A stretch of 64,000 nucleotides of DNA from the sequence record PV287714.1; one strand, written 5' to 3'. Source of the stretch: Escherichia phage HMD-9. Under the pieces are notes generated by a model, which ran no database searches, was not told where the DNA came from, and saw nothing but the letters and a program-made list of their open reading frames with translations. The position numbers were made by a program, and so were the translations under genes. Each line of letters opens with the position of its first letter. Within the stretch, counting starts at the first letter, position 1. Shown piece after piece: positions 1,957-38,657 of the stretch.

Positions 1957-3240
1957 ATGGCTAAAATCAACGAACTTTTGCGCGAATCAACCACAACGAA
2001 TAGCAACTCAATCGGTCGCCCAAATCTCGTTGCTTTGACTCGCGCTACCACTAAATTAATATATTCTGACATTGTAGCAACGCAAAGAACTAATCAACCT
2101 GTTGCTGCTTTTTATGGTATCAAATACCTTAACCCAGATAATGAATTTACATTTAAAACTGGTGCTACTTACGCTGGCGAAGCTGGGTACGTAGATCGAG
2201 AACAAATCACAGAATTAACAGAAGAGTCTAAATTAACTCTCAATAAAGGCGATTTATTCAAATATAATAATATCGTTTATAAAGTATTAGAAGATACACC
2301 ATTTGCTACCATTGAAGAAAGCGATTTAGAATTAGCTCTTCAGATTGCAATTGTTCTTTTAAAGGTTCGTCTATTTTCTGATGCTGCAGTAACAAGCAAA
2401 TTTGAAAACTCTGATAGCGAAATTGCGGATGCTAGATTCCAGATTAATAAATGGCAAACCGCAGTTAAATCTCGTAAACTTAAAACTGGCATTACGGTTG
2501 AATTAGCACAAGATTTAGAAGCAAATGGATTCGATGCTCCTAATTTCTTAGAAGATTTGCTTGCAACTGAAATGGCGGATGAAATCAATAAAGATATTCT
2601 GCAGTCTTTGATTACAGTGTCAAAACGCTATAAAGTTACAGGAATTACTGATACTGGATTCATCGATTTGAGTTATGCATCTGCTCCTGAAGCTGGTCGT
2701 TCATTATACCGAATGGTATGTGAAATGGTTTCGCATATCCAAAAAGAATCAACTTATACAGCAACGTTCTGTGTTGCTTCTGCTCGTGCCGCTGCGATTC
2801 TTGCTGCATCAGGTTGGTTAAAACATAAACCAGAAGATGACAAATATCTTTCACAAAATGCCTACGGGTTATTAGCTAATGGTTTACCGCTTTATTGCGA
2901 TACCAACAGCCCATTAGATTATGTAATCGTTGGCGTAGTAGAAAATATCGGTGAAAAAGAAATTGTTGGATCAATTTTCTATGCTCCGTATACAGAAGGT
3001 CTTGACTTAGATGACCCTGAACATGTAGGTGCATTTAAAGTTGTAGTTGATCCAGAAAGCTTACAACCATCTATCGGTTTATTGGTTAGATATGCTTTAT
3101 CTGCAAATCCTTACACTGTAGCAAAAGATGAAAAAGAAGCAAGAGTAATTGATGGTGGAGACATGGATAAAATGGCGGGTCGTTCAGATTTGTCTGTTTT
3201 ATTAGGTGTTAAACTACCAAAAATTATCGTTGATGAATAA
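1957..3240 (+). CDS. 24: head vertex protein gp24
   Basis: 427 aa, gp23 paralogue, position after 23. Confidence 0.95.
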   Translation: MAKINELLRESTTTNSNSIGRPNLVALTRATTKLIYSDIVATQRTNQPVAAFYGIKYLNPDNEFTFKTGATYAGEAGYVDREQITELTEESKLTLNKGDLFKYNNIVYKVLEDTPFATIEESDLELALQIAIVLLKVRLFSDAAVTSKFENSDSEIADARFQINKWQTAVKSRKLKTGITVELAQDLEANGFDAPNFLEDLLATEMADEINKDILQSLITVSKRYKVTGITDTGFIDLSYASAPEAGRSLYRMVCEMVSHIQKESTYTATFCVASARAAAILAASGWLKHKPEDDKYLSQNAYGLLANGLPLYCDTNSPLDYVIVGVVENIGEKEIVGSIFYAPYTEGLDLDDPEHVGAFKVVVDPESLQPSIGLLVRYALSANPYTVAKDEKEARVIDGGDMDKMAGRSDLSVLLGVKLPKIIVDE

Positions 3241-3245
3241 AACAA

Positions 3246-3263
3246 AGGGACCAAAAGGTCCCT
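3246..3263. terminator. bidirectional terminator hairpin between 24 (+) and rnlB (-)
   Basis: AGGGACC-AAAA-GGTCCCT flanked by A-run and T-run. Confidence 0.55.
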
Positions 3264-3269
3264 TTTTAT

Positions 3270-4274
3270 TTAACTTACCAATTCAATCCAAGTCGGACGA
3301 AGTACATCTTGTACCATTTTAACTAATTCCTTTTTAATCAAAGAAGGATTATCCGCTTGAGTTAGAGTAATACCTTCACGAGAAGTTTCTTCCAAAATAT
3401 CTTGAACAGTTAGCCCCATCACCTTTCCAAAATCTTTTGGACCAATTTCGCCAATTTTAGAAATAACATTATTTACTCGGTTCAGTGTAACGTAGCAAGC
3501 TAAAATTCCCAGCAATTTATTATCAGCTTCTGACAACTCAACTTTAGCTTTAATAGGCTTATCAGACTTTTTCTTTTCGCTAAATTTAGAGTTCTTGCAT
3601 TTAATAGCGACACGATTGCCATTAGGCATCCAAGAAGGATAACAAGGTTTCAATACATATCCTTCAGCAGTAAATACTTCGCCTTTTGCTTCGGCATTCC
3701 AAACGCATTTATTTGCATCAACTAATCCAGCATGGTCTACTGTAAAATTATAATCCTGGACGACAGAATCTAAATCATTTGGCAATTTAATAAGTTCTTC
3801 AAATTTACCGCGACCTAAAAGTGGAGCCATTTTAAATTTAAATGTATTACAGAATGATTCCATCATATAATCATCGACATAAGTCACATCACCACTTTCC
3901 GTAGTAACAATAATGTCAAATACATAAAAATCTTTATCGCCATAATCGACATTCTTCTGAATGCCAGGTCCAGCGAATTCGCCAAAAACTTGATAAGATA
4001 CAACTGCTGAAGTTTCCATAATATCTTGCACTGCTTTAATGGAATCAGCGTAATTCTTTAAAATAATTTCATACCCAAAGAAATCTTCAGCAGGAAGAAT
4101 CGGTCCAGTACGTTTAGCACAAGTTGCTTTATCGCGTTCAATAATCAGTGAGAAATTTGTGCCATGAATCTTTTCACGAGCTACCCATTCGCCGCCAGTC
4201 AATCCTAAACTGTAAAGTTTTTCAATGAATTTAGAATTGTAATGATTTTCAAGACTGCTATACTTTTTAAACAT
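3270..4274 (-). CDS. rnlB: RNA ligase 2
   Basis: 334 aa; nucleotidyltransferase lysine motif KIHGTN; T4 position after 24. Confidence 0.93.

Positions 4275-28635: not shown

Positions 28636-28636
<1 letters not shown>
28439..28636 (-). CDS. hypothetical protein (cd.5 position)
   Basis: 65 aa ORF. Confidence 0.65.

Positions 28637-29854
<1,218 letters not shown>

Positions 29855-31289: not shown

Positions 31290-31290
<1 letters not shown>
31232..31290 (-). promoter_or_regulatory. early-type promoter plus leader inverted repeat (copy 2 of repeated cassette)
   Basis: Near-identical to 17706-17760; GTTTACA..TACAGTAGT; inverted repeat overlaps SD of alc. Confidence 0.45.
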
Positions 31291-32877
<1,587 letters not shown>

Positions 32878-32884
32878 AATAAAA

Positions 32885-32900
32885 TGGGCCTTGCGGCCCA
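32885..32900 (-). terminator. hairpin between nrdB stop and denA start (terminator and split Shine-Dalgarno element)
   Basis: TGGGCC-GCAA-GGCCCA followed by TTTTATT; AAGGAG lies 5' of the hairpin. Confidence 0.45.
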
Positions 32901-32904
32901 CTCC

Positions 32905-34083
32905 TTAAAAGTATTTTTTAAAACTCATCATAACTTTATCATCAACATCATTATCAATCTGTGCTACAAGATAAGATGACAGTTCTACTTCTTGCGGTGC
33001 AGATTGAACATTATCAGAATTAAGATATTCACGAATCCAAGGATACGGATGTTTAACCGGAGCATCGGTAATTGGACATGGAAGACCACACTGTTTCATA
33101 CGAGATACAGTTAAGTAATCAATAAAGCTCCACATGCTATTTGTATTTAATCCAGGAACATCGCCATCTTTAAATAAATGAACTGCCCAATCTTTTTCTT
33201 GGCGGTTAACTTCCATGAAAATATCAACTGCTTCTTGTTCACACTCTTGAGCAATTTTAACCCATTCATCGCCATCAGTACCGGATTGAAGTTGACGAAT
33301 AATATATTGAGTGCCTTTAAGGTGAAGCTGCTCATCACGAGCAATGAACTTCATAATCTTGGCATTACCTTCCATGATTTCCATGTTTTTGTGGAAGTTA
33401 AATGTACAGGCGAAAGATACATAAAAACGAATAGCTTCCAATGCGTTGATTACATGAAGGCAGAGGTAAAGAGATTTCATTAGCGCTCGTTTAGCTTCGG
33501 CTTCTTGTTTAATAGCTCGATTTAAACGAAAATCAGCATCAGGAGATTCTTTAGCTAGTTCTACGAATTCTTTAGCATTTTCCCATTCACGGGTCTTCTT
33601 AAGAACATCATCGTAGTAGCGACCAATGGACTCGGCACGTTTCATAATATCTTCATCTAATACAATCTCATCAAATACCTTTGACGGATCAGTATAAAGA
33701 TTTCGCATAATATGAGTGTATGAACGACTGTGAATAGTTTCGCTAAAAGTCCATGTAGCAACCCATGTATCAAGACTTGGGTCTGAAATTAACGACATAA
33801 GTACAGCAGACGGTGCACGACCCTGAATGCTATCTAGAAGTGATTGATACTTCAGGTTATTAGTAAAAATATCTTGCTGATACTGAGGAAGCTTGTTAAA
33901 TTGTGCAGCATCCATCATCAAGTTTACTTCTTCCGGACGCCAGAAAAATGACAAAGACTTCTCAATAAGTTCTTCAAATACTCGATGCCGTTGAATATCA
34001 TATCGAGCTAAACCCAATCCAGAACCAAAAAACATCGGCTCAGTCAAAATATTAACAGGTGATGTATTAAAAACAGTACTCAT
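32905..34083 (-). CDS. nrdB: ribonucleotide reductase beta subunit, uninterrupted
   Basis: 392 aa continuous ORF with diiron-site residues; no intron. Confidence 0.95.
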   Translation of the reverse strand: MSTVFNTSPVNILTEPMFFGSGLGLARYDIQRHRVFEELIEKSLSFFWRPEEVNLMMDAAQFNKLPQYQQDIFTNNLKYQSLLDSIQGRAPSAVLMSLISDPSLDTWVATWTFSETIHSRSYTHIMRNLYTDPSKVFDEIVLDEDIMKRAESIGRYYDDVLKKTREWENAKEFVELAKESPDADFRLNRAIKQEAEAKRALMKSLYLCLHVINALEAIRFYVSFACTFNFHKNMEIMEGNAKIMKFIARDEQLHLKGTQYIIRQLQSGTDGDEWVKIAQECEQEAVDIFMEVNRQEKDWAVHLFKDGDVPGLNTNSMWSFIDYLTVSRMKQCGLPCPITDAPVKHPYPWIREYLNSDNVQSAPQEVELSSYLVAQIDNDVDDKVMMSFKKYF

Positions 34084-34721
34084 TTAGAATCCTTAAATTT
34101 ACATTTATCATAATGCCATCTTAAAGCATTACCTTTATTAACTTTCTTTCCACAATGCGGACACGGCGGATACTCTGCACCTTGTTTAGTTCTCAAAGAA
34201 ATCAAATCGCGGGTTTCTTTAGTATGAGGAACATCTCTCGTTGGAGAGATTGTACCATACATTGGATTAAGCACGCCGACTTTAGCAGCAGCTATATTCT
34301 TTTTAGCTTCTTCAGTTTTAGGTTTTCTCATGCGAGCTAAATGCTCTTTAGTAAATTTCCTTCCTTTAAGAGCTCTACTTATCTTTTCTCTGGTTTCTAT
34401 AGAAACTTCACGTCCTATAGCAGCTCCAGACAAACGTCGTCTACCTAATTCGTATAGTTGAGAAGAAATTTTATATGAGCGATTTTTACCAGTCAAGCAC
34501 ATTAAACCAAAAGCTTTCTTTAATCCCGGGGTGTCATATATTTTACATAAAAGCCAATGCGCTATAAAATGCTCTCTACCTGTTAATTCAACTAAATTTT
34601 CTTTATCATCAGAACCTCCCATACATCTAGGGATTATATGATGAGTCTCTTTATATCCTAATAAAGGTTCCCGGGTTTGTGCCCGGGAAATTAAACTGTT
34701 ATATACGTTTTGATAATTCAT
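34080..34721 (-). CDS. mobE: HNH homing endonuclease MobE
   Basis: 213 aa; HNH motif HHIIPRCMGGSDDKENLVELTGREHFIAH; inserted between nrdA and nrdB with overlapping start/stop. Confidence 0.85.
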   Translation of the reverse strand: MNYQNVYNSLISRAQTREPLLGYKETHHIIPRCMGGSDDKENLVELTGREHFIAHWLLCKIYDTPGLKKAFGLMCLTGKNRSYKISSQLYELGRRRLSGAAIGREVSIETREKISRALKGRKFTKEHLARMRKPKTEEAKKNIAAAKVGVLNPMYGTISPTRDVPHTKETRDLISLRTKQGAEYPPCPHCGKKVNKGNALRWHYDKCKFKDSK

Positions 34722-36985
34722 TACAATTTACACGCTGCGCAATCTTCAGCTTTTGGAGTTTCTATTTCATAATCATCAGTACCGGAACCATCACGAGTAT
34801 TATGATAATAGAAGTTTTTAATGCCATAATACCATCCGTATAGCATGTCATCAATCATTACAGACATTGGAACCTTTCCTTTTGGAAAAATCTGCGGGTC
34901 ATAATATGTATTCGCTGAAGCTGATTGACATACCCATTTAAGCATAATAGCTACCTGCGTAAGATAAGGTTTATTACCTTTCTTAGCTAATTTCCATGTA
35001 TAATCATATAGGTCTATGTTATGTTCAATATTGGGCACGACTTGATTAAAGGAACCCTCTTTTGATTCTTTAACAGAGACTGGTCCGCGTGGAGGCTCGA
35101 TACCGTTTGTACTGTTGGAAACTTGGGAAGATGACTCACATGGCATAAGTGCTGATAATGTGCTATTACGGATGCCAAAGAGCTTAAGGTCTTCCCGCAG
35201 CGACGACCAGTCACAAACGTATTTTGGAGCTGCGATTTGGTCAATCTTTTTATTGTACCAGTCGATAGGTAATTCGCCTCGAGACCAACGAGTGTCTGAA
35301 TAATATTCGCAAGGTCCTTTTTCTTTGGCGAGCTTAATGGATGCTTTAATGAGTCCATACTGTAGTCTCTCAAATAGTTCATGTGTTAAATCGTTAGCAT
35401 CTTCATAAGAAGCAAAGTTACTTGCCAGCCAAGCTGCATAGTTAGTAACACCTACACCAAGATTTCGACGCTTTTTAGCTTTTTCTGCTTCAGGAACTGG
35501 ATATCCTTGGTAATCCAAAAGATTATCAAGAGCGCGAACTTGAACTTCTGCCAATTCATTAATTTTATCTTGGTCTTGCCAATCGAAGTTATCTAACACA
35601 AATGCAGATAACGTACACAATCCAATTTCGGCATCAGGACTATTCACATCATTTGTTGGAATAGCAATTTCACAACACAAGTTACTCTGACGAATAGGTG
35701 CCTTTTCACGAATAAACGGAGTATAGTTATTCGTATTATCAATGAACTGTACATAAATCCTTGCTGTTCCTGATCGTTCAGTCATGAGCAATTCAAACAG
35801 TTCACGGGCTTTAATACGCTTTTTACGAATATTAGGGTCTTTTTCTGCGGCTTCGTATAATTCACGGAAACGGTCTTGGTCTTTAAAATAAGAATAATAA
35901 AGCTCACCACCCATTTCATGTGGACTGAACAAAGTAATGTAGTCGTTCTTTCCAAAACGTTCCATCATTAGGTCATTCAGCTGGACGCCATAATCCATAT
36001 GACGGATACGGTTTTCTTCTACGCCTTTGTTATTTTTCAAAACGAGAAGATTTTCAACTTCCAAATGCCAAATAGGATAATAAGCAGTAGCAGCGCCGCC
36101 ACGAATTCCACCCTGTGAGCATGATTTAACAGCAGTCTGAAAATGTTTCCAAAAAGGAATAACACCAGTATGACGTACTTCACCTGTACCAATCTTAGAA
36201 CCTTCGGCACGAATCATACCAACGTTAATACCAATTCCAGCGCGTTTGGAGATATATTCAACAATTGAAGCGGAAGCCTTGTTGATAGACTTCAGCGAAT
36301 CACCCGCCTCAATAACAACGCATGAACTAAACTGCCGAGTTGGAGTACGGCAACCAGCCATAATAGGAGTTGGTAATGAAATCTGTCGAGTAGATACTGC
36401 TTCATAAAAACGAATAACGTGTTTTAGTCTATCAACAGGTTCATCTTGATGCAATGCCATTCCAATAGTCATAAATGCAAACTGTGGAGTTTCATAAATT
36501 TGACCAGTGGTTTTATCTTTAACTAGATATTTTTCTTTTAATTGCATCGCCCCGGAATAAGTAAATTCCATATCCCGCTCATGCTTAATTTTTGATTCTA
36601 AAAATGTAATTTCTTCTGCTGAATATTTTGACAGCAGTTCAGGGTCATATTTACCTTCATTTACACAGTAAGAAATATGGTCAATAAATGAACGGGGCTC
36701 ATACTGCCCGTAAACATGCTTACGAAGAGCGAACATTAAACAGCGTGCAGCTACATATTGATAATCAGGCTCTTCAACTGAAATAGAATTCGCAGCAGCC
36801 TTAATTACAATGGTTTGAATGTCATCAGTGGTCATTCCATCACGGAGATATGATTTAATATTTTCATATAATTCATAAGGATCTACAGATGTTCCTTCAG
36901 CTGCCCAAGATAAAACTTTAATAATTTTTTGCGGGTCAAAGCTCTGAGAAACACCACTACTTTTGATAACATTAATTAATTGCAT
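34721..36985 (-). CDS. nrdA: ribonucleotide reductase alpha subunit
   Basis: 754 aa; ATP-cone N-terminus, catalytic Cys region, C-terminal CxxC tail. Confidence 0.96.
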   Translation of the reverse strand: MQLINVIKSSGVSQSFDPQKIIKVLSWAAEGTSVDPYELYENIKSYLRDGMTTDDIQTIVIKAAANSISVEEPDYQYVAARCLMFALRKHVYGQYEPRSFIDHISYCVNEGKYDPELLSKYSAEEITFLESKIKHERDMEFTYSGAMQLKEKYLVKDKTTGQIYETPQFAFMTIGMALHQDEPVDRLKHVIRFYEAVSTRQISLPTPIMAGCRTPTRQFSSCVVIEAGDSLKSINKASASIVEYISKRAGIGINVGMIRAEGSKIGTGEVRHTGVIPFWKHFQTAVKSCSQGGIRGGAATAYYPIWHLEVENLLVLKNNKGVEENRIRHMDYGVQLNDLMMERFGKNDYITLFSPHEMGGELYYSYFKDQDRFRELYEAAEKDPNIRKKRIKARELFELLMTERSGTARIYVQFIDNTNNYTPFIREKAPIRQSNLCCEIAIPTNDVNSPDAEIGLCTLSAFVLDNFDWQDQDKINELAEVQVRALDNLLDYQGYPVPEAEKAKKRRNLGVGVTNYAAWLASNFASYEDANDLTHELFERLQYGLIKASIKLAKEKGPCEYYSDTRWSRGELPIDWYNKKIDQIAAPKYVCDWSSLREDLKLFGIRNSTLSALMPCESSSQVSNSTNGIEPPRGPVSVKESKEGSFNQVVPNIEHNIDLYDYTWKLAKKGNKPYLTQVAIMLKWVCQSASANTYYDPQIFPKGKVPMSVMIDDMLYGWYYGIKNFYYHNTRDGSGTDDYEIETPKAEDCAACKL

Positions 36986-37302
36986 AAGTCCTCAACTTGA
37001 AAATCGTCTTTAAACAATCGGTTAACTATATGAGCTATTATATCACCATGACACGGCTTTGGTTTACATGTGCATCCTAGCCTCATTCCACGTAAAGGCT
37101 CTAAATGTGCTTTAGTTATTTCTCCGGATTTAATTCGACGTATAAAATCTTTTTTGAATAATTCAATGGCAGCCTCCCGGCTGCCAGCATCTTTACCGAC
37201 GTAATTTCCCCAAAATGTACCACGGTGAATATTAACATCAAAGTCGGATTTATATTTATTCACTACCTGGCATAGACGGCCCGCGCGGTGATAATTCGTC
37301 AT
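36976..37302 (-). CDS. hypothetical protein (nrdA.1 position)
   Basis: 108 aa ORF. Confidence 0.7.
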
Positions 37303-37542: not shown

Positions 37543-37854
37543 TTACACCGCCATTTTTCCTTTAATAGGAGGGTGTGATTCGTAACCTTTAAGAACGAAA
37601 TCTTTAGGCCTGAGTTTAAGAATGTATTCCAATTGTTCTTTAGTAGAAAGATAACGGAATTTATAAGGCAATCCGCCTATTACCAGTTCACAAAGCTCTT
37701 TAGGTTCACGACGCAAAATTTCTTTACATTGTTCTACGTGATTCATATAGATATGAGTATTACCGCCAGAAAATATCAAATCTCCTGGAATAAGATTACA
37801 CATCTTAGCTACAATATGAACCAACGCAGCATATGATGCAATGTTGAATGGAAG
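37543..37854 (-). CDS. td: thymidylate synthase, exon 2
   Basis: Encodes LPFNIASYAALVH...; joins exon 1 to give 286 aa; the track's leading M is the intron 3' ATG. Confidence 0.93.
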   Translation of the reverse strand, partial: LPFNIASYAALVHIVAKMCNLIPGDLIFSGGNTHIYMNHVEQCKEILRREPKELCELVIGGLPYKFRYLSTKEQLEYILKLRPKDFVLKGYESHPPIKGKMAV

Positions 37855-38108
37855 CATTATGTTCAGATAAGGTCGTTAATCTTATCCCGGAATTATATCC
37901 AGCTGCATGTCACCATACAGATCAGACTATATCTCCATCTTGATGAAGCAAGATGTCTATCGTTTCGAGTCACTTGACCCTACTCCCCAAAGGGATAGTC
38001 GTTAGGCATTTAGTTCAAAAGAACATTTAGCACGGGATTGTCTACTAGAGAGGTTCCCCGTTTAGATAGATTACAAGTATAAGTCACCTTATACTCAGGC
38101 CTCAATTA
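37855..38108 (-). ncRNA. group I self-splicing intron in td, ORF-less (no I-TevI)
   Basis: 5' end TAATTGAGGCCTGAGTATAAGGTGACTTATAC..., 3' end ...CTGAACATAATG; exon 1 ends in U, intron ends in G; 254 nt, no ORF. Confidence 0.9.
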
Positions 38109-38657
38109 ACCCAAGAAAACATCTACACTTCTTTGGTACCATTGTAAATCAAGATAACCATTACGCACATTAAACTGATAGAACATATGACAGGGCGGTA
38201 ATGCCATTTGATTGATTTCAGCTGGATTCCATGCTGAAACGATTTGACGTCGATCAGTTGGTAATTTTTTAATACGATCAATAGTTTCAACTAATTGATC
38301 CACACCACCGAAATCACGCCATTGTTTACCGTATATAGGACCAAGTTCACCACTATGATATCCTAGGTCTTTAGCCTGGTTTTCATAGTTATCGTCCCAA
38401 ATAGTTTTACCTTGAATAAGACTACCATGAGTGCGAAGACGTAAATCATTAACATTGGTAGAACCGGAAATAAACCATAGAAGCTCAGCAATGCAAGCTT
38501 TCCAAGCGAGCTTCTTAGTCGTTACTGCAGGAAAACCTTTAGTTAAATCCCAGCGTAATTTAGTACCGAACAAAGCAATTGTTCCTGTGCCTGTTCGGTC
38601 ATCGGTTTCATAGCCATTTTCAAAAATGTCTTTAATTAAATCTTGGTATTGTTTCAT
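38109..38657 (-). CDS. td: thymidylate synthase, exon 1
   Basis: 183 codons ending QRSVDVFLG; the track's stop is the first 3 nt of the intron. Confidence 0.93.

Follow-up and report, generated by a model that had tools for sequence, protein, structure and literature searches.

The nrd locus analyzed here belongs to Escherichia phage HMD-9 and lies within a window of 64,000 nucleotides (sequence record PV287714.1), by which we mean the whole stretch of DNA that was analyzed. According to the list of open reading frames, the genes from pseT to nrdA.1 follow the T4 order and are all encoded on the minus strand:

28636-29541, minus strand: pseT
about 31290-32450, minus strand: rnlA
32467-32901, minus strand: denA, with a GIY-YIG domain
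32905-34083, minus strand: nrdB, ribonucleotide reductase small subunit, an uninterrupted 392-codon frame
34080-34721, minus strand: mobE, LZ7/T6-type allele, 213 aa, a free-standing HNH homing (nicking) endonuclease gene (Pfam, PHROG, alignments)
34721-36985, minus strand: nrdA, 754 aa, aerobic ribonucleotide reductase large subunit (ORF list and Pfam)
36976-37302, minus strand: nrdA.1

The nrdA product matches the ATP-cone, RNR all-alpha and RNR barrel families of Pfam (E 2e-137), and the nrdB product matches Ribonuc_red_sm across aa 33-335 (E 1.4e-36); at the nucleotide level, nrdA is 96% identical to its counterparts in T2, T6, and T4. An earlier note on this DNA had described, between the two reductase genes, a 213-aa HNH reading frame containing the strings HHIIPRCMGG, ENLVEL, and HFIAH and overlapping both neighbors. 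The strings, the coordinates and the length are confirmed by the ORF list, and the sequence itself bears out that the frame sits exactly between nrdA and nrdB, with an overlap of 1 nt on the nrdA side and 4 nt on the nrdB side. Specifically, the nrdA TAA stop (34723-34721) and the mobE ATG share one nucleotide within TAATGA (TTG TAA TGA ATT at 34726-34715), and the mobE TGA stop and the nrdB ATG overlap as ATGA (AAATGAGT) in a junction that reads TCT AAA TGA GTA.

We identify this reading frame as an LZ7/T6-type allele of the T4-like (Tequatrovirus) gene mobE, near-identical to named and characterized genes. Its product differs from LZ7 MobE (DQ178119) in 3 of 213 residues (98.6% identical); T6 MobE is 95% identical to it, and the 232-aa MobE of T4 76%. 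With respect to the last of these, 48 of the 55 residues of the N-terminal (HNH) part and all 83 C-terminal residues are the same, and the middle module, at aa ~56-130, has diverged: it is 19 aa shorter and about one third identical. The best DNA match of the gene is LZ7 mobE (96.9%), the corresponding gene is named mobE in the GenBank annotations of T4T, T6, and LZ7, where the layout is the same, and the translation matches PHROG 655, 'homing endonuclease' (E 5e-64). Moreover, a megablast query with positions 32400-37000 against 50,697 phage records matched 969 of them, all T4-like, with Salmonella phage GRNsp7 as the best match (97.0%) and T6 matching in one piece at 94.7%. Thus, the free-standing HNH homing endonuclease arrangement that the earlier note had recognized is borne out by the near-identity to LZ7 MobE and the mobE annotation in T6, LZ7, and T4, and the gene is an already known one, an ordinary copy of a well-studied selfish HNH gene. 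The mobE sequences of LZ7 and RB15, together with Hef, were reportedly first described by Sandegren et al. in 2005.

Three motifs can be delineated in the protein:

34557-34652, minus strand: HNH catalytic motif, aa 24-55, KETHHIIPRCMGGSDDKENLVELTGREHFIAH, with His27/His28, Asn42, and His51 (H-x14-N-x8-H)
34359-34415, minus strand: NUMOD3 DNA-binding motif, aa 103-121, in the middle module that differs between the T6/LZ7-type and T4-type proteins
34101-34163, minus strand: zinc-finger-like motif, C187-x2-C190-x12-H203-x3-C207, within the 83-residue C-terminal block identical to T4 MobE

The HNH motif reads ETHHIIPRCMGGSDDKENLVELTGREH and has the standard spacing H28-x13-N42-x8-H51. The translation matches the Pfam HNH family (PF01844) with 23.0 bits against a cut-off of 21.4 (E 8.6e-5) over aa 24-44, and NUMOD3 (PF07460) with 34.4 bits (E 2e-8); the HNH score barely exceeds its cut-off. 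A lack of the HNH catalytic residues would have counted against the reading of the earlier note, but all of these residues are intact in a motif that lies above the Pfam cut-off. In a phmmer comparison with protein structures, the motif gave a weak alignment (E 0.22, not significant alone) with the maturase of a group II intron, in its HNH (En) domain (6me0 chain C, EIHHILPKHKGGSDDLDNLV...H); as this was the best hit, a significant PDB sequence match to the reading frame was not found, and the I-HmuI and I-BasI structures were unmatched too. The C-terminal motif showed a similarly weak resemblance to the consensus C2H2 zinc finger 1mey (phmmer, E 0.72), and its C-x2-C-x12-H-x3-C pattern suggests a zinc finger.

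The ratio of non-synonymous to synonymous substitution rates between this mobE and five other alleles (Nei-Gojobori) is 0.04-0.20 for the whole reading frame, including the HNH and NUMOD3 parts, with 13-24.5 synonymous and 3-11.5 non-synonymous differences; the values for nrdA, for comparison, are 0.005-0.016. MobE is under purifying selection and is a working protein-coding gene. We considered and rejected a decayed remnant on account of these ratios and the intact motifs.

The regulatory anatomy of the cassette can be read by comparison with T4, in which mobE is promoterless and has a UAAUGA overlap with nrdA that suggests translational coupling (PMC2790892; PMC2988022). The same hexamer is found at the HMD-9 nrdA/mobE junction, and by analogy the cassette is likely to be promoterless here too. 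In addition, T4 mobE contains, 27 nt past its AUG, a hairpin that acts as a weak intrinsic terminator and stops 30-50% of transcripts (PMC2790892), and its 3' end harbors the nrdB middle promoter (PMC2790892; PMC2988022). Candidate counterparts are present in HMD-9:

34658-34689, minus strand: terminator-like hairpin in mobE, with stem and loop at 34689-34668, starting 32 nt past the AUG (TTCCCGGG-CACAAA-CCCGGGAA, then T-rich CCTTTATTAG)
34090-34130, minus strand: candidate nrdB expression signals in the mobE 3' end, a MotA-box-like AATGCTTTA at 34130-34122 and a Shine-Dalgarno AAGGA at 34094-34090

The hairpin, detected by a terminator scan, has 8 bp, six of them G-C pairs, and a loop of 6; the fold of the RNA is predicted at -16.5 kcal/mol (z -4.1), and none of 200 shuffled sequences was equally stable. 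It occupies the same position as in T4 and, compared to the stem of T4 and T6 (TTCCCGAGC...GCTCGGGAA), shows a paired A>G / T>C compensatory change that matches the LZ7 variant. The variant of LZ7 and RB15 has been described as having a shorter stem and a longer loop (PMC2790892). Given the parallel with T4 mobE, we predict that this hairpin acts as a weak intrinsic terminator. At the other end of the gene, the last ~85 nt differ from T4 by a single synonymous base (34131), and the AAGGA Shine-Dalgarno lies 6 nt ahead of the nrdB ATG; these bases might well serve nrdB as its middle promoter and ribosome-binding site.

With respect to nrdB, the earlier note had claimed a single 392-codon frame devoid of a group I intron or I-TevIII, and re-inspection by alignment and Rfam search found neither. 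Aligned with its intron-less counterparts in T2 and GRNsp7, both of which encode 392 aa, the gene is collinear and shows no long gap. The introns of T4 and HY03 each form a single block that follows nrdB nt 676 (T|GT, in the Cys226 codon), which locates the following site in the window:

33407-33408, minus strand: unoccupied insertion site for the I-TevIII group I intron, nrdB nt 676/677, from the T4 and HY03 alignment

The nrdB genes of HMD-9, T2, T6, and GRNsp7 are continuous across nt 676|677. A search of the whole 64 kb with Rfam at the gathering threshold detected no group I intron (RF00028) in nrdB, the sole match being in td. The length of the product, 392 aa in HMD-9, T2, GRNsp7, and HY03 and 388 aa in T4 and T6, depends on the segment at aa ~171-200, which is variable and comes in at least three alleles. 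This segment was also considered as an intron scar or an I-TevIII site and was rejected as such, the intron site being located 80-170 nt downstream, at nt 676. The intron-less nrdB is the ancestral and commoner state, and mobE is an element independent of the I-TevIII intron.

The distribution of these elements among phages shows mobE to be a minority element: 125 phage records matched mobE DNA alone, 48 of them over at least 80% of its length, as compared to 868-969 records that matched the nrd genes. When the span of nrdB and mobE was used as the query, 33 rows were obtained at full coverage. In 28 of these the match was a single piece, as expected for an intron-less nrdB, and these rows represent 21 distinct phages, including T6, the slur phages, GRNsp7, Killian, and JEP6; the other five, which represent three phages (HY03, SHFML-26, and vB_ECOLIGBLB0003), contain the full I-TevIII intron. 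Thus, among phages with T6-type mobE, the combination with an intron-less nrdB is the commoner state, 21 versus 3. Phages with T4-type mobE are found both with the intron (T4, RB55, RB59, and ELT1) and without it (ECO4).

The nrdA-nrdB slot is a known hotspot. In Aplg8 it is occupied by a gene for a 248-aa protein, the first ~100 residues of which are MobE-like (62% identity) and the C-terminal 140 unrelated, and in U5 by a distinct endonuclease, Hef, that is reported to target nrdB (PMC2988022). A scan of IMG/VR with a degenerate 41-nt pattern for the conserved nrdB block retrieved six loci, none with a full MobE match and one with an N-terminal-like match. As six loci are too few, the comparison between mobE and the target alleles that follows is based on the GenBank phage collection.

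The target of T4 MobE is known: in T2 nrdB, the protein introduces a nick into the non-coding strand at nt 122-126 (codon 42), which adjoins the conserved block encoding FFWRPEE; nt 114-131 are polymorphic, and a bipartite site has been proposed (PMC2790892). Nicking has been mapped for T4 MobE alone, and the middle module of that protein differs from the T6/LZ7-type one. The check suggested in the earlier note assumed a cleavage site at the nrdA/nrdB junction; this assumption fails, given that the T4 MobE nick falls ~125 nt inside nrdB (PMC2790892), and an alignment of nrdA/nrdB junctions would therefore miss the target. The corresponding stretch in HMD-9 is:

33953-33970, minus strand: polymorphic stretch around the mapped nick, nrdB nt 114-131, with the nick at nt 122-126 (33962-33958), followed by the conserved FFWRPEE block

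In this stretch HMD-9 has CTTATTGAGAAGTCTTTG compared to TTAACCGAAAAGCAGTTG in the mobE-less T2, so that 9 of the 18 positions differ (114, 115, 117, 119, 120, 123, 127, 128, and 129). The FFWRPEE-coding block is identical in HMD-9 and T2 and is conserved in all alleles. Codon 42 of HMD-9 is AAG, as in all susceptible mobE-less phages; AAG is also among the codon 42 variants given for mobE-bearing phages (PMC2790892). Since the codon is that of susceptible phages, any immunity must rest on the flanking polymorphisms, and we infer that the allele at nt 114-131 is probably a self-immunity allele.

Over the first 420 nt of nrdB, the divergence from T2 lies mainly at the 5' end. In the first three 60-nt blocks, 47, 43, and 53 of 60 positions are identical to T2 (143/180 for nt 1-180), whereas from nt 181 to 420 most of the four blocks have 59-60 of 60 identical; on the other side of the cassette, the identity of nrdA to T2, 96% overall, falls only in the last 45 nt. 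A query with nrdB nt 5-204 yielded a bimodal distribution, in which 37 of the records listed were at least 94.5% identical, the next best reached 88%, and 289 of 326 fell in the 80-90% band. In all 37 high-identity records, the nrdA-nrdB slot is filled by an endonuclease gene, which is the T6-type mobE in 35 and the Aplg8 gene in two. Thus, the first ~200 nt of nrdB are a haplotype that is confined to phages in which an endonuclease gene occupies the slot. Such a diverged 5' haplotype fits the trace that would be expected from co-conversion of the flanks together with an immunity allele. In the progeny of T4 x T2 crosses, recombination points were found within nrdB nt 1-189 (PMC2790892), and the footprint in HMD-9 agrees with them.

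Putting these observations together, we propose, with considerable confidence, that the HMD-9 gene is a selfish mobE of the LZ7/T6 type that is expressed as in T4, homes into nrd loci that lack it, and protects its own carrier. The cassette replaces the ~50-nt nrdA-nrdB spacer of mobE-less phages such as T2. By extension from T4, mobE would be transcribed by read-through from nrdA promoters and translated at a low level, probably by termination-reinitiation at the UAAUGA overlap, with the weak terminator ~30 nt into the coding sequence damping its expression further. The 3' end of mobE would, again as in T4, supply a middle promoter and a ribosome-binding site for the essential nrdB, so that the cassette would be hard to delete. 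The protein itself would consist of an N-terminal HNH nuclease, linker motifs of the NUMOD3 type and, at the C-terminus, a Cys2-His-Cys finger. During mixed infections, MobE is expected to bind the FFWRPEE-coding block of a mobE-less nrdB and, as shown for T4, to introduce a nick into its non-coding strand at about nt 122-126. The break would then be repaired from the mobE-bearing genome, so that mobE along with the flanking nrdA and nrdB sequence is transferred to the recipient, and the outcome would be super-Mendelian inheritance of mobE and local marker exclusion. The phage's own nrdB would presumably escape nicking because it departs from the susceptible allele at nt 114-131. Homing and marker exclusion at the nrd locus, as predicted here, are supported by the match to the behavior of T4 mobE in T4 x T2 crosses (PMC2790892).

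As for the site of action, it is possible, albeit unlikely, that the T6/LZ7-type MobE recognizes or cuts a site in or near nrdB other than nt 122-126. In the alignment with T4 MobE, the ends of the protein are conserved and the middle has been swapped, nrdB nt 121-135 differ between T6-type (GAGAAGTCTTTGTCA) and T4-type (GAGCGGCAGATCAGT) phages, and Aplg8 indicates that the slot tolerates the fusion of an HNH head to an entirely different C-terminal domain. However, the 83 residues at the C-terminus, which most likely form the module that reads the sequence, are the same as in T4, and the proposed binding site, the FFWRPEE-coding block, is conserved in all alleles. A related proposal, to which we assign a rather low probability, is that the T6/LZ7-type MobE differs from that of T4 in its target or immunity specificity, with the bimodal nrdB 5' haplotype reflecting a co-evolved pair of endonuclease and immunity allele; if so, T-even phages would carry at least two mutually incompatible types of mobE that exclude each other's nrd markers.

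Two further readings call the nuclease itself into question. The cassette might be kept mainly for the nrdB promoter and ribosome-binding site and for a terminator that balances NrdA and NrdB, the endonuclease being inactive or irrelevant in this lineage. The ~85 nt at the 3' end that contain the nrdB signals are indeed the most conserved part of mobE across alleles, the hairpin has been kept through the compensatory change, and Wilson and Edgell have pointed out that the embedded promoter selects against deletion (PMC2790892). We nevertheless deem this reading very improbable, inasmuch as the constraint extends over the whole reading frame, HNH and NUMOD3 parts included, the residues of the HNH motif are all in place, and the tight linkage between the cassette and a diverged nrdB 5' haplotype is the product expected of active homing with co-conversion. 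Furthermore, MobE could direct or regulate another phage endonuclease that nicks nrdB. This caveat was raised by Wilson and Edgell themselves: nicking by T4 MobE was shown in vivo only, in vitro activity could not be demonstrated for a gene that remained uncloned, and neither a double-strand break nor the involvement of another nuclease was ruled out (PMC2790892). Against it stand the complete HNH motif, scoring above the Pfam cut-off, and the finding that deletion of the motif (aa 33-62) abolished the nicking in T4 (PMC2790892); moreover, the failed cloning suggests a toxic protein, as an active nuclease would be. We regard this last reading as exceedingly improbable and retain the homing nickase as the preferred interpretation.

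The present analysis mainly contributes a correct annotation, with the expectation that the inheritance of nrdA-nrdB would be biased in mixed infections as it is for T4 mobE. Furthermore, the nrdB 5' haplotype, which fits the published model of co-conversion and self-immunity, could be used to predict pairs of Tequatrovirus phages that show nrd marker exclusion.

Among the known systems, the MobE proteins of LZ7 (DQ178119) and T6 (MH550421, AY262134) share with that of HMD-9 the slot, the 213-aa length and the 1-nt and 4-nt overlaps; T6 has an nrdB without an intron, and so does LZ7 over the stretch covered by its partial record, which extends past the intron site. The HMD-9 protein differs from these two by point substitutions only, such as Gly98, at which LZ7, Killian, GRNsp7, T6, and T4 have Glu or Lys, and its nrdB has the 392-aa variable-segment allele of GRNsp7 and HY03, whereas T6 and T4 have the 388-aa allele. 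T4 MobE has in common with it the HNH head, the C-terminus, the UAAUGA coupling, the internal hairpin and the nrdB signals in the 3' end. In contrast, the T4 nrdB intron with its defunct I-TevIII, which is mobilized in trans by MobE, is a passenger that is absent from HMD-9, and the codons at the nick site are AAG TCT TTG in HMD-9 compared to CGG CAG ATC in T4.

Other endonucleases resemble MobE in some of these features. The Aplg8 endonuclease occupies the same slot, has a MobE-like HNH head and is accompanied by the same nrdB 5' haplotype, but its C-terminus is unlike that of MobE; Hef of U5 also occupies this slot and is set apart as a distinct endonuclease by its description in a review (PMC2988022). 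I-TevIII of RB3 and HY03 is likewise an HNH enzyme that targets nrdB, but it is encoded within the intron at nt 676|677, a site that is empty in HMD-9. Finally, I-HmuI and I-BasI of Bacillus phages, which have been cited as mechanistic parallels of MobE (PMC2790892; PMC2988022), similarly combine an HNH head with an extended DNA-binding tail and nick in a strand-specific manner, but are encoded by introns.

Comparison with database records indicates that the window is mosaic between positions 32400 and 38300: the best match is GRNsp7 for the nrd region (97.0%), LZ7 for mobE (96.9%), HY03 for the 5′ end of nrdB (99.0%) and 236Ecol005PP for the td intron region, and no single record among the database matches is the best match for all four. 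The td gene is organized as follows:

38109-38657, minus strand: td exon 1
37855-38108, minus strand: td group I intron (Rfam RF00028)
37543-37854, minus strand: td exon 2

This group I intron consists of only 254 nt, without the I-TevI ORF; it matches RF00028 in Rfam with 72.7 bits over the full model and, compared with T4, shows a clean 762-nt deletion that eliminates most of I-TevI. In the list of the 30 best records, one-piece matches to the td intron region of the window are confined to four, namely 236Ecol005PP (99.2%), N2, BYEP01 and 215Ecol030PP, and the others possess td with I-TevI, either full or truncated. Judged from the sequences of these 30 records, the ORF-less form of the td intron looks rare.

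Two features of the nrd locus are located as follows:

34429, minus strand: mobE codon 98 (GGA), Gly98
33484-33579, minus strand: nrdB hypervariable segment (nrdB nt ~505-600, aa ~171-200)

Residue 98 of MobE, which lies shortly before the NUMOD3 motif in the window protein, is Gly in the window, Glu in LZ7, Killian, GRNsp7 and T6, and Lys in T4. The short hypervariable segment of nrdB is represented by at least three unrelated alleles, one shared by the window, GRNsp7 and HY03, another found in T2, and a third, 4 aa shorter, in T4 and T6; the sequence on either side is >95% identical. This segment is neither the MobE nick site nor the intron site; conceivably, it could be a surface loop or a recombination patch of old date.

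In phage Aplg8, the nrdA-nrdB slot is occupied by a different gene (coordinates on L014, the stretch from NC_054902.1):

2688-3434, minus strand: homing endonuclease, 248 aa

The HNH head of this protein resembles that of MobE (62% identity across ~100 aa) and is joined to a C-terminal domain unrelated to MobE; the nrdB 5′ haplotype linked to the gene is that of the window. From these sequence comparisons, the Aplg8 endonuclease looks like a product of domain shuffling inside the nrdA-nrdB slot.
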